This document shows positions 1,076 to 3,578 of a stretch of DNA of 4,967 nt, one piece after another; within the stretch, counting starts at the first letter, position 1, and each line of letters begins with the position of its first letter. This stretch comes from a virus (lineage: Duplodnaviria > Heunggongvirae > Uroviricota > Caudoviricetes): IMG/VR virus record IMGVR_UViG_2740892229_000007; one strand, given 5' to 3'. The position numbers and the translations under genes were made by a program. The notes under the pieces were generated by a model. The model saw only the letters and a list, made by a program, of their open reading frames with translations, had not been told where the DNA came from and did no database searches.

Positions 1076-3578
1076 AAATGTCCACCATTCCCACCCTTCT
1101 GGGGCCGGACGGCATGACATCGCTGCGTGAATATGCCGGTTATCACGGCGGTGGCAGCGGATTTGGTGGGCAGTTGCGGGCGTGGAACCCACCGGGTGAA
1201 AGTGTGGATGCAGCCCTGCTGCCCAATTTTACCCGTGGCAATGCCCGTGCAGACGATCTGGTACGCAATAACGGCTATGCCGCCAACGCCATCCAGCTGC
1301 ATCAGGATNNNNNNNNNNCTTTACCCGTGGCAATGCCCGCGCAGACGATCTGGTACGCAATAACGGCTATGCCGCCAACGCCATCCAGTTGCATCAGGAT
1401 CATATCGTCGGGTCTTTTTTCCGGCTCAGTCATCGCCCAAGCTGGCGCTATCTGGGCATCGGGGAGGAAGAAGCCCGTGCCTTTTCCCGCGAGGTTGAAG
1501 CGGCATGGAAAGAGTTTGCCGAGGATGACTGCTGCTGCATTGACGTTGAGCGAAAACGCACGTTTACCATGATGATTCGGGAAGGTGTGGCCATGCACGC
1601 CTTTAACGGTGAACTGTTCGTTCAGGCCACCTGGGATACCCGTCCCTCGCGACTGTTCCGGACACAGTTCCGGATGGTCAGCCCGAAGCGCATCAGCAAC
1701 CCGAACAATACCGGCNNNNNNNNNNAGTTCGTCGCGGCTTTTCCGGACACAGTTCCGGATGGTCAGCCCGAAGCGCATCAGCAACCCGAACAATACCGGC
1801 GACAGCCGGAACTGCCGTGCCGGTGTGCAGCTTAATGACAGCGGTGCGGCGCTGGGATATTACGTCAGCGAGGACGGGTATCCTGGCTGGATGCCGCAGA
1901 AATGGACATGGATACCCCGTGAGTTACCCGGCGGGCGCGCCTCGTTCATTCACGTTTTTGAACCCGTGGAGGACGGGCAGACCCGCGGTGCAAATGTGTT
2001 TTACAGCGTAATGGAGCAGATGAAGATGCTCGACACGCTGCAGAACACGCAGCTGCAGAGCGCCATTGTGNNNNNNNNNNCGAGTTACCCGGCGGTCGTG
2101 CTTCGTTCATTCACGTCTTTGAACCCGTGGAGGACGGGCAGACCCGCGGTGCAAATGTGTTTNNNNNNNNNNTCGTGCCTCGTTCATTCACGTCTTTGAA
2201 CCCGTGGAGGACGGGCAGACCCGCGGTGCAAATGTGTTTTACAGCGTGATGGAGCAGATGAAGATGCTCGACACGCTGCAGAACACGCAGCTGCAGAGCG
2301 CCATTGTGAAGGCGATGTATGCCGCCACCATTGAGAGTGAGCTGGATACGCAGTCAGCGATGGATTTTATTCTGGGCGCGAACAGTCAGGAGCAGCGGGA
2401 AAGGCTGACCGGCTGGATTGGTGAAATTGCCGCGTATTACGCCGCAGCACCGGTCCGTCTGGGAGGAGCAAAAGTGCCGCACCTGATGCCGGGGGACTCA
2501 CTGAACCTGCAGACGGCTCAGGACACGGATAACGGCTACTCCGTGTTTGAGCAGTCACTGNNNNNNNNNNTGGCGCGAATAGTCAGGAGCAGCGGGACAA
2601 GCTGACCGGCTGGATTGGTGAAATTGCCGCGTATTACGCCGCAGCACCGGTCCGGCTGGGAGGCGCAAAAGTGCCTCACCTGATGCCGGGTGACTCACTG
2701 AACCTGCAGACGGCTCAGGACACGGATAATGGCTACTCCGTTTTTGAGCAGTCACTGCTGCGGTATATCGCTGCCGGGCTGGGTGTCTCGTATGAGCAGC
2801 TTTCCCGGAATTACGCCCAGATGAGCTACTCCACGGCACGGGCCAGTGCGAACGAGTCGTGGGCGTACTTTATGGGGCGGCGAAAATTCGTCGCATCCCG
2901 TCAGGCGAGCCAGATGTTTCTGTGCTGGCTGGAAGAGGCCATCGTTCGCCGCGTGGTGACGTTACCTTCAAAAGCGCGCTTCAGCTTTCAGGAAGCCCGC
3001 AGTGCCTGGGGGAACTGCGACTGGATAGNNNNNNNNNNTTGCGGTATATCGCTGCCGGGCTGGGTGTCTCGTATGAGCAGCTTTCCCGGAATTACGCCCN
3101 NNNNNNNNNCTCGCCGCGTGGTGACGTTACCTTCAAAAGCGCGCTTCAGTTTTCAGGAAGCCCGAAGTGCCTGGGGGAACTGCGACTGGATAGGCTCCGG
3201 TCGTATGGCCATCGATGGTCTGAAAGAAGTTCAGGAAGCGGTGATGCTGATAGAAGCCGGACTGAGCACCTACGAGAAAGAGTGCGCGAAACGCGGTGAC
3301 GACTATCAGGAAATTTTTGCCCAGCAGGTCCGTGAAACGATGGAGCGCNNNNNNNNNNACAGGAAGCGGTGATGCTGATAGAAGCCGGACTGAGTACCTA
3401 CGAGAAAGAGTGCGCAAAACGCGGTGACGACTATCAGGAAATTTTTGCCCAGCAGGTCCGTGAAACGATGGAGCGCCGTGCAGCCGGTCTTAAACCGCCC
3501 GCCTGGGCGGCTGCGGCATTTGAATCCGGGCTGCGACAATCAACAGAGGAGGAGAAGAGTGACAGCAGAGCTGCGTAA
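1072..3578 (+). CDS. B: Portal protein (lambda gpB-like); complete start and stop present, but coding path interrupted by 9 N runs and redundant allelic blocks
   Basis: ATG at 1072 overlaps the gpW stop (ATGA). In-frame pieces: 1072-1308, 1320-1715, 1726-2070, 2082-2162, 2174-2560, 2572-3027, 3039-3098, 3112-3348, 3360-3578, stop TAA 3576-3578. Translation [33 protein letters not shown]...[175 protein letters not shown]. Matches the lambda portal as I recall it. Confidence 0.9.
1309..1318. other. Gap: run of 10 N (block junction 4/5)
   Basis: 10 consecutive n; sequence after the gap re-reads 1227-1308. Confidence 0.99.
1319..1400 (+). repeat. Redundant near-identical re-read of 1227-1308 (gpB region)
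   Basis: Aligned by eye; aat->aac, cgt->cgc, ctg->ttg, all synonymous. Confidence 0.9.
1716..1725. other. Gap: run of 10 N (block junction 5/6)
   Basis: 10 consecutive n; sequence after the gap re-reads 1641-1715. Confidence 0.99.
1726..1800 (+). repeat. Redundant re-read of 1641-1715 (gpB region) with a divergent first 15 bp
   Basis: cgtccctcgcgactg (R-P-S-R-L) vs agttcgtcgcggctt (S-S-S-R-L); remainder identical by eye. Confidence 0.85.
2071..2080. other. Gap: run of 10 N (block junction 6/7)
   Basis: 10 consecutive n; sequence after the gap re-reads 1920-2001. Confidence 0.99.
2081..2162 (+). repeat. 82-bp block that re-reads 1920-2001 (gpB region); a third allele
   Basis: ggg cgc gcc -> ggt cgt gct (G-R-A synonymous), gtt->gtc synonymous. 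Confidence 0.9.
2163..2172. other. Gap: run of 10 N (block junction 7/8)
   Basis: 10 consecutive n; sequence after the gap re-reads 1935-2070. Confidence 0.99.
2173..2308 (+). repeat. Redundant re-read of 1935-2070 (gpB region); also overlaps block 2081-2162
   Basis: cgc->cgt, gtt->gtc, gta->gtg, all synonymous. Confidence 0.9.
2561..2570. other. Gap: run of 10 N (block junction 8/9)
   Basis: 10 consecutive n; sequence after the gap re-reads 2374-2560. Confidence 0.99.
2571..2757 (+). repeat. Redundant re-read of 2374-2560 (gpB region)
   Basis: Mostly synonymous (aac->aat, cgt->cgg, gga->ggc, ccg->cct, ggg->ggt, aac->aat, gtg->gtt); one nonsynonymous patch gaa agg -> gac aag (R-E-R vs R-D-K). 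Confidence 0.9.
3029..3038. other. Gap: run of 10 N (block junction 9/10)
   Basis: 10 consecutive n; sequence after the gap re-reads 2758-2818. Confidence 0.99.
3039..3099 (+). repeat. 61-bp block that re-reads 2758-2818, internal to the previous block (gpB region)
   Basis: Identical apart from ctg->ttg (Leu synonymous) at its first codon. Confidence 0.9.
3100..3109. other. Gap: run of 10 N (block junction 10/11)
   Basis: 10 consecutive n; sequence after the gap re-reads 2945-3028. Confidence 0.99.
3110..3193 (+). repeat. Redundant re-read of 2945-3028 (gpB region)
   Basis: agc->agt (Ser), cgc->cga (Arg) synonymous. Confidence 0.9.
3349..3358. other. Gap: run of 10 N (block junction 11/12)
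   Basis: 10 consecutive n; sequence after the gap re-reads 3231-3348. Confidence 0.99.
3359..3476 (+). repeat. Redundant re-read of 3231-3348 (gpB region)
   Basis: agc->agt (Ser), gcg->gca (Ala) synonymous. Confidence 0.9.
3546..3552 (+). promoter_or_regulatory. Shine-Dalgarno (GAGGAGG) for gpC GTG start, embedded in the 3' end of the portal gene
   Basis: GAGGAGG at 3546-3552, 6-nt spacer, GTG at 3559. Confidence 0.75.

Follow-up and report, generated by a model that had tools for sequence, protein, structure and literature searches.

Three copies of a lambda-type portal-gene segment are an assembly artefact built from real natural alleles

Introduction

What does it mean when one segment of a phage portal gene appears three times in succession, each time spelled with slightly different codons? 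The question is raised by the window, the whole 4,967-nucleotide stretch of DNA analysed here (IMG/VR record IMGVR_UViG_2740892229_000007, Caudoviricetes), in which a lambda-type portal segment of about 81-82 nt is present three times. A repeat finder (family D4) and direct reading both recover it, in line with the sequence-only reading that first drew attention to it. Copy 1 (1921-2001) and copy 2 (2082-2162) share 95% identity, and copy 3 starts at 2173. All three fall on the same lambda coordinates, 3507-3588 (gpB codons 225-251), and the three-copy match is far beyond chance.

Direct reading also gives the codons that had been claimed for the copies: copy 1 reads GGG-CGC-GCC...GTT, copy 2 GGT-CGT-GCT...GTC, and copy 3 (GG)T-CGT-GCC...GTC. 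Copies 1 and 2 differ at a fifth base too, 1920/2081 (cgT vs cgC), which belongs to the Arg codon just before these. The proposal that all copies encode the same peptide stands for copies 1 and 2, which share the translation [27 protein letters not shown]; copy 3 holds part of this peptide only. Its proposed span, 2173-2254, is 15 nt too long, as copy 3 is in register solely over 2173-2239 (67 nt, lambda 3522-3588), and the longer span gives [22 protein letters not shown] and then YSVME.

Layout of the window

The window consists of 17 short fragments separated by 16 gaps, every one of them exactly 10 N. The fragments are colinear with 3133 bp of lambda and phage 2H10, comprising the end of A, W, B and the start of C. 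They are numbered F00 to F16 below, together with the two gaps that separate the portal copies.

F00, 1..290, plus strand: lambda 2086-2375; terminase large subunit A, aa 460-555
F01, 301..532, plus strand: lambda 2258-2489; A, aa 517-593; 118-nt overlap with F00
F02, 543..950, plus strand: lambda 2429-2836; end of A and W
F03, 961..1308, plus strand: lambda 2725-3072; end of W and portal B, aa 1-79
F04, 1319..1715, plus strand: lambda 2991-3387; B, aa 53-184
F05 (graph node), 1726..2070, plus strand: lambda 3313-3657; portal gpB, aa 160-274; holds copy 1
Gap F05/F06, 2071..2080, no strand: exactly 10 N
F06, 2081..2162, plus strand: lambda 3507-3588; gpB, aa 225-251; equals copy 2
Gap F06/F07, 2163..2172, no strand: exactly 10 N
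F07, 2173..2560, plus strand: lambda 3522-3909; gpB, aa 230-358; holds copy 3
F08, 2571..3028, plus strand: lambda 3723-4180; B, aa 297-448
F09, 3039..3099, plus strand: lambda 3910-3970; flush after the end of F07 on the reference
F10, 3110..3348, plus strand: lambda 4097-4335; B, aa 422-500
F11, 3359..3804, plus strand: lambda 4218-4663; end of B and protease C, aa 1-82
F12, 3815..3898, plus strand: lambda 4555-4638; C, aa 47-73
F13, 3909..4022, plus strand: lambda 4558-4671; C, aa 48-84; Gly65Val
F14, 4033..4324, plus strand: lambda 4639-4930; C, aa 75-171; flush after F12 on the reference
F15, 4335..4638, plus strand: lambda 4726-5029; C, aa 104-204
F16, 4649..4967, plus strand: lambda 4900-5218; C, aa 162-267; truncated where the window ends

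The order of the fragments is that of their lambda start coordinates, and their mutual overlaps range from 33 to 205 nt. On the reference they give a depth of 1x at 1663 positions, 2x at 1266 and 3x at 204, with no position uncovered. The overlap-and-repeat pattern is found at all 16 N-gaps, across four genes, and the nodes flanking each gap either overlap on the reference or adjoin one placed earlier. F06, for example, lies wholly inside F05 on the reference, so that no sequence is missing at the gap 2071-2080. F06 in turn overlaps F07 by 67 nt, and the identical stretch that they share, at the end of F06, is exactly 60 nt long. A second three-allele pile-up is formed by F11, F12 and F13 (repeat finder family D2). 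Tandem Repeats Finder reported just two of the duplicated blocks in the window, and a six-frame list of open reading frames shows frames broken at each gap.

The 10-N runs between the portal copies (2071-2080 and 2163-2172) had passed without mention in the sequence-only reading. Masking by a database was considered as a source of the N and is unlikely, given that the gaps are uniformly 10 N long with overlapping sequence on either side.

A close known counterpart is the lambda A-W-B-C block (NC_001416 2086-5218): its order and frame are those of the fragments, and none of the 17 needs an indel to align with it, at about 96-99% identity. F03 to F11 are gap-free on lambda gene B (2836-4437) with 1-11 mismatches per fragment, and annotated matches carry the name 'portal protein'. 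Colinear nucleotide homology and an open frame within each fragment place the segment in gpB, whereas reading straight through the window breaks the frame at the gaps and repeated stretches; taken separately, every fragment in the window is open in the lambda frame, with no internal stop and no frameshift. The window differs from this block in being not one gene copy but a pile in which fragments of several alleles interleave, and there is no one known phage or prophage that fits every fragment.

Fragment boundaries and the assembly graph

The positions at which the fragments start and end carry the signature of a k=61 graph. No 61-mer is common to two fragments, and eight 60-mers are. In 8 of the 20 overlapping pairs the longest identical stretch measures exactly 60 nt, always at the 3' end of the fragment that ends earlier. 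A variant base opens each of the 16 downstream fragments (roughly 2e-22 by chance), this being the first base that separates a fragment from the one it overlaps; F07, accordingly, starts where its haplotype departs from that of F05. Ends lie 60 nt beyond a variant in 13 of 16 cases (chance about 7e-20), and two further ends are flush with the start of the next node. The only 3' end outside the node model is that of F08 (lambda 4180): the fragments show no variant at lambda 4120, and five references have none at 4120 or 4181. Fragment lengths obey the same arithmetic. F09, at exactly 61 nt, is a single-SNP bubble branch, a variant base followed by 60 nt identical to F08, and the 82 nt of F06 are the 22 nt from its first to its last private variant plus 60.

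In a de Bruijn graph no k-mer stands in two nodes and neighbours share at most k-1 bases, as found here; a node opens with its first private base and closes k-1 past its last one or at a branch, as found here save for F08; and the fixed minimal 10-N spacing between nodes is present at 16 of 16 gaps. A k=61 graph built as a positive control from the lambda, GE3 and EDL933 prophages, with nodes labelled by the last base of every k-mer, reproduces this geometry, including a maximum shared run of 60, SNP nodes 61 long, starts on variants, and ends at a variant plus 60 or flush. In the control, which is a strict unitig graph, stretches common to all copies form separate nodes, whereas in the window they are absorbed into allele-specific fragments.

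How could such a pile have been written out as one sequence? The best explanation, to which we give a probability of about 0.93, is that the three copies are allele-specific k=61 de Bruijn nodes from different near-identical lambda-like prophage copies, strung together with minimal 10-N gaps by the scaffolder of a short-read assembler. F05, F06 and F07 would each derive from another near-identical lambda-like prophage head-gene module, and the scaffolder would lay the nodes in series, placing a minimal 10-N gap wherever they actually overlap. Velvet-type scaffolds set overlapping neighbours apart by a minimal run of N; Velvet writes a gap shorter than 10 bp as 10 N, a rule for which a literature search yielded no confirmation. 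The features that the window shares with Velvet-type scaffolds are the maximum shared run of k-1 = 60 nt, the starts on private bases, the SNP node of k = 61 and the uniform 10-N gap between overlapping nodes; it differs from them in the merging of all-copy stretches into allele-specific fragments and in the unfitting end of F08, and the assembler, presumably Velvet or a derivative, is itself deduced from these traits. According to the MetaVelvet paper (PMC3488206), Velvet takes the label of a node from the last nucleotide of each k-mer in it. Given this labelling, appended nodes would lack their left k-1 prefix. Allele-specific nodes may have had close to single-copy coverage and been treated as unique, and read pairs spanning sequence common to the copies could then have interleaved them into one chimeric scaffold. 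The absorption of all-copy stretches would call for an additional repeat-resolution or simplification step, absent from the control graph.

The segment in natural loci

Among natural loci that cover the site, the segment is present once per locus in 67 of 67, against three times in the window. The first 166 nt of F15 match exactly in 73 natural contigs; none of these 73 loci contains an N run, and none holds more than a few of the fragments exactly. The junction pattern with 10 N has no match in viral_contigs or metagenome_contigs, in searches for which a control established that N in the pattern does match N in the target. In the window the copies are joined by 10-N runs only and not by continuous determined sequence, and the arrangement does not recur in the related loci. 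The three-copy arrangement is an artefact of assembly and scaffolding; it is not the structure of any DNA molecule, nor a genomic repeat.

Alleles and phasing

The three alleles, synonymous with one another, are real natural sequences. At lambda 3507/3522/3525/3528/3543/3597, copy 1 (F05) has T-G-C-C-T-A; copy 2 (F06) has C-T-T-T-C, and copy 3 (F07) has (T)-T-T-C-C-G. Four sites tell the alleles apart, lambda 3522, 3525, 3528 and 3543. They span 22 nt and fit inside single 61-mers, so that G-C-C-T, T-T-T-C and T-T-C-C are combinations phased directly, not chimeras of the graph. In complete E. coli genomes, the 82-nt allele of F05 is found at 100% identity in 1172 records, that of F06 in 420, mostly STEC, and the 82-nt stretch of F07 in 173. 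Wherever F05, F06, F07 or F13 matches a complete E. coli genome at 100%, the gene annotated at the site is a portal or S49 peptidase gene. The F05 haplotype also occurs in phage 2H10 and three other natural loci, the F06-type haplotype CTTTCG in six and the F07-type TTTCCG in seven, including GE3. The F06 allele is present exactly in the uninterrupted, gap-free portal gene of Escherichia sp. E1V33, its sole match in genome_contigs, and in EDL933. The alleles are common in human-gut metagenome contigs as well. Across the whole window, the differences between overlapping fragments bear the mark of selection: 51 of 65 fall at codon position 3 (P about 1e-13), with 42 synonymous changes and 13 non-synonymous ones.

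Source templates

That the copies imply at least three source templates, as the sequence-only reading had it, is supported, because the alleles are phased, natural and each present once per locus; the phased combinations, the 100% natural matches, the contiguous haplotypes in independent loci and the third-position bias all speak for it. Where did these templates reside? Sequence alone does not discriminate between one genome and a mixture of cells. Most likely, one E. coli-like genome harbours them all, as three or more lambdoid prophages. Probably, that genome carries three or more lambda-like prophages with nearly the same head proteins, differing at synonymous sites and forming EDL933-, GE3- and lambda/2H10-like mosaics. 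Co-resident lambdoid prophages of E. coli, above all of STEC (such as O157:H7 EDL933, O26, O145), likewise provide multiple portal copies, and F06, F12 and F14 are identical to EDL933 prophage (0 mismatches each). GE3-like fragments are F13 (0 mismatches), F16 (1) and F08 (3), and lambda/2H10-like ones are F09 (0) and F05 (3). None of the eight references compared matches all fragments, and the type of reference alternates from one fragment to another.

Complete E. coli genomes carry up to 5-6 portal copies, and the F05 and F06 alleles sit at separate loci of one chromosome in NZ_CP027355.1, NZ_CP027331.1, NZ_CP027587.1 and NZ_CP025318.1. Strain 2013C-3277 has two prophages with different DNA alleles of the segment and the same portal protein, WP_024026143.1. 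One genome would be sufficient, because single chromosomes carry many copies, including both the F05 and F06 alleles.

Alternative explanations

The same artefact could have arisen if the templates lay in different cells and related lambdoid phages or prophages of different E. coli strains were co-assembled, whether from mixed strains, from a contaminated culture or from a metagenome. Unlikely as it is, this origin fits the resemblance of the fragments to unrelated prophage lineages (EDL933/STEC-like, GE3-like commensal and lambda/2H10-like) and the frequency of the same alleles in human-gut metagenome contigs. Among the complete genomes matched, none came to light with all three alleles together, and several fragment ends imply additional, unseen haplotypes. 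Against it stand the 5-6 gene copies that one E. coli chromosome can hold, the four chromosomes with both the F05 and F06 alleles, and the absence of the exact junction pattern from the metagenome collection.

A second alternative keeps the k=61 de Bruijn contigs and has them ordered and joined by a separate, reference-guided tool with a fixed 10-N linker. The perfect sorting of the fragments by reference start and the uniform gap length are typical of reference-ordered pseudomolecules. However, exported contigs normally keep a k-1 flank on both sides, which would place the first private variant at position 61, whereas all 16 downstream fragments have it at position 1 and only the 3' side keeps a 60-nt flank. 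This asymmetry is expected from concatenated internal node labels rather than from joined finished contigs, and contigs of 61-84 nt are usually filtered out before external scaffolding; an external linker is thus improbable, and the stringing of nodes by the assembler's own scaffolder is the reading retained here.

That a single template underlies the copies, with the apparent alleles being sequencing or assembly errors, is very improbable and already contradicted. In its favour, a single site (lambda 3528) is all that separates F06 from F07 over the 67 nt of their overlap, but both alleles recur at 100% identity in hundreds of complete genomes, they belong to the distinct natural haplotypes CTTTCG (6 loci) and TTTCCG (7 loci), the differences lean strongly towards third codon positions, and every fragment is free of stops and frameshifts. 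The weakest alternative, a genuine tandem triplication or set of partial duplications in one molecule with the Ns as short unresolved bases, has next to no chance and is likewise contradicted: nothing but the linear order of the copies speaks for it, whereas the overlap pattern repeats at 16 of 16 gaps over four genes, the boundaries follow k-mer arithmetic and not biological logic, the copies would break the reading frame, and natural loci hold one copy in 67 of 67 cases.

Significance

The significance of the arrangement is one of quality control only. Several near-identical lambdoid prophages in one host are already well documented for E. coli, STEC particularly, and the artefact is an ordinary one; co-resident lambdoid prophages are a well-known cause of fragmented short-read assemblies. 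If the templates do share one genome, its three or more prophages would be a substrate for inter-prophage recombination. A linear reading of the window yields false repeats, broken genes and spurious ORFs. The combination of 10-N gaps, shared runs of at most 60 nt and starts on variant bases offers a simple flag for collapsing similar regions elsewhere in the assembly. In the window itself, redundant graph debris accounts for about a third of the length (1674 duplicated bases plus 160 N).

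Layout of the window

A portal gene segment of about 81 nt is present three times, at 1921-2001, at 2082-2162 and again from 2173, both by direct reading and by a repeat finder (family D4), which puts identity between the first two copies at 95%. The codon differences are those that the sequence-only reading described: GGG-CGC-GCC...GTT in copy 1, GGT-CGT-GCT...GTC in copy 2 and (GG)T-CGT-GCC...GTC in copy 3, with an additional synonymous difference in the base before the segment (cgT at 1920, cgC at 2081). Its claim that all three encode one peptide holds for copies 1 and 2, which give the same 27 residues, but not for copy 3, which has only part of it; its third interval (2173-2254) keeps register with the other copies as far as 2239 and then continues into YSVME. 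Each copy lies in its own fragment:

F05, window 1726-2070, holds copy 1
F06, window 2081-2162, is copy 2
F07, window 2173-2560, holds copy 3

These three overlap at lambda 3507-3588 (gpB codons 225-251), and similar duplication is found at every gap of the window. Sixteen N runs, each of exactly 10 N, leave 17 fragments (F00 to F16) of 61-458 nt.

Starts of the 10-N gaps (window positions)
291, 533, 951, 1309, 1716, 2071, 2163, 2561, 3029, 3100, 3349, 3805, 3899, 4023, 4325, 4639

By megablast against phage records, the 4967 bases fall in 17 pieces on only 3133 bp of reference, a stretch that runs from the final part of the terminase large subunit gene through the head-tail adaptor gene W and the portal gene into the beginning of the protease/scaffold gene. 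Fragments are ordered strictly by their start on lambda coordinates (2086 to 5218); neighbours overlap by 33-205 nt, and the short F06 and F09 each lie wholly within a longer fragment. Every reference position is covered, 1663 of them once, 1266 twice and 204 three times, and 1674 bases of the window are duplicated; a second three-deep pile occupies 3700-4022 (family D2). Open reading frames read across any gap are spurious, a problem that extends over the whole window, beyond the portal segment.

Fragment boundaries and the probable assembly graph

No 61-mer is common to any two fragments, and eight 60-mers are. Of 20 overlapping pairs, 8 have exactly 60 nt as their longest identical run, and in each case that run sits at the 3' end of whichever fragment stops first. 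All 16 fragments with a predecessor open at a base where they and the overlapped fragment disagree (rough chance probability about 1e-22), and 13 of 16 end exactly 60 nt past a site private with respect to another fragment (about 1e-19). F09 consists of exactly 61 nt, a variant base and then 60 nt that match F08 perfectly, which makes it as long as a single-SNP bubble branch would be at k = 61; the 82 nt of F06 are a 22-nt private-variant span plus 60.

Velvet labels graph nodes by the last nucleotide of each k-mer (MetaVelvet paper, PMC3488206). A node written this way has no left flank and a full 60-nt right flank, which is the asymmetry that the fragments show. As a positive control, a k = 61 graph was built from lambda and the prophage sequences of E. 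coli GE3 and O157:H7 EDL933, with Velvet-style labels. Its maximum shared run was 60, a ceiling that 15 of the 88 overlapping node pairs reached exactly, and its SNP nodes measured 61 nt. Among 86 allele-specific nodes, 68 started on variant sites; 68 ended at variant+60 and 18 flush before a variant. By Velvet's convention, a gap estimated at less than 10 bp is output as 10 N, a rule for which the literature searched gave no confirmation; it would account for uniform gaps between nodes that truly overlap.

F07 and F12 end flush with the starts of the later F09 and F14, respectively (window 2560/3039 and 3898/4033), which implies graph branches; the alternative branches, whose labels would be about 45 and 33 nt long, are absent from the window. 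Since no fragment is shorter than 61 nt, smaller nodes may have been dropped. The end of F08 (window 3028, lambda 4180) is the only one that fits neither the variant+60 rule nor the branch rule: a variant at lambda 4120 is absent among the fragments, and five references have none at 4120 or 4181. F03, F14 and F15 end (window 1308, 4324 and 4638) 60 nt past an earlier variant despite later differences from an overlapping fragment, at lambda 3061, 4879 and 5014. This implies merging with a further haplotype absent from the window, so at least three templates are needed at these ends, and possibly four overall.

The alleles in natural genomes

Could the three copies stand side by side in one molecule? 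The segment is single-copy in all 67 natural gap-free loci spanning the site, versus three in the window. The threefold arrangement is an artefact of assembly and scaffolding and exists in no DNA molecule; which assembler and k value were used, and how many copies the source has, we infer from the sequence.

The three alleles themselves are real. Perfect (100%) matches to the 82-nt versions are found in complete E. coli genomes: the F05 type in 1172 records, the F06 type in 420 (largely O157, O26 and O103 STEC) and the F07 type in 173, with an annotated "phage portal protein" over every match. Escherichia sp. E1V33 has the F06 allele, upstream cgC included, without mismatch in an unbroken portal gene. 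The 67 loci show seven haplotypes at the six variable sites (lambda 3507, 3522, 3525, 3528, 3543 and 3597), among them TGCCTA (F05), CTTTCG (F06) and TTTCCG (F07); the last carries T at 3507, matching the node-model prediction for the unseen F07 prefix. Overlapping fragments differ at 65 sites. Third codon positions account for 51 of these (P about 1e-13), and the 65 divide into 42 synonymous, 13 non-synonymous and 10 at fragment edges. The lambda reading frame is open in every fragment, and Gly65Val in gene C (F13), the most unusual of the changes, is likewise an allele that occurs in nature.

Number and source of templates

Four allele-distinguishing sites span 22 nt and lie inside single 61-mers, so that allele phase is directly observed. 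The reads must have included three distinct templates, and the proposal of at least three sources is thereby supported. The fragments' affinities are mixed: EDL933-like (F06, F12 and F14 with 0 mismatches each, F07 with 2), GE3-like (F13 with 0, F16 with 1, F08 with 3) and like lambda or phage 2H10 (F09 with 0, F05 with 3, F11 with 5).

A mixture of strains could have supplied these templates. Several prophages in one genome are the simplest source, because the portal gene reaches 5-6 copies in complete E. coli genomes and the F05 and F06 alleles occur together, each at its own locus, in four chromosomes. The artefact is an ordinary one, and so is the biology behind it, in which near-identical lambdoid prophages confuse assembly from short reads.

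Comparison prophages and a possible gene C mosaic

E. coli 2013C-3277 (NZ_CP027331.1), one of the four chromosomes with both alleles, has two prophages, at about 1.549 Mb and 0.994 Mb, that share annotated portal (WP_024026143.1) and peptidase (WP_000123254.1) accessions, although 5 of the segment's 82 nt differ between them. The annotation of one of them gives the terminase large subunit gene as a pseudogene with a frameshift.

In gene C, three adjacent changes turn codon 55 from CAG to GGA (Gln to Gly; 3721-3723 versus 3840-3842 and 3931-3933), adjoined by Thr60Ala (3736 versus 3855 and 3946). So dense a cluster of non-synonymous changes contrasts with the largely synonymous differences in other places and suggests that prophage lineages meet at a mosaic boundary close to where the protease gene begins. 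An exact match to the first 166 nt of F15 occurs in 73 natural contigs, of which 43 also hold F13 exactly and 0 the full 304-nt F15; F13 is thus commonly linked in nature to the 5' part of F15, and the 3' part carries a rarer combination.

In E. coli O26 RM10386 (NZ_CP028126.1; locus positions 3858-4880) the portal gene is annotated as truncated, its C-terminus missing, and is followed by mom and com on the opposite strand; the lambda-like head module therefore appears to have been interrupted or replaced by other phage DNA.
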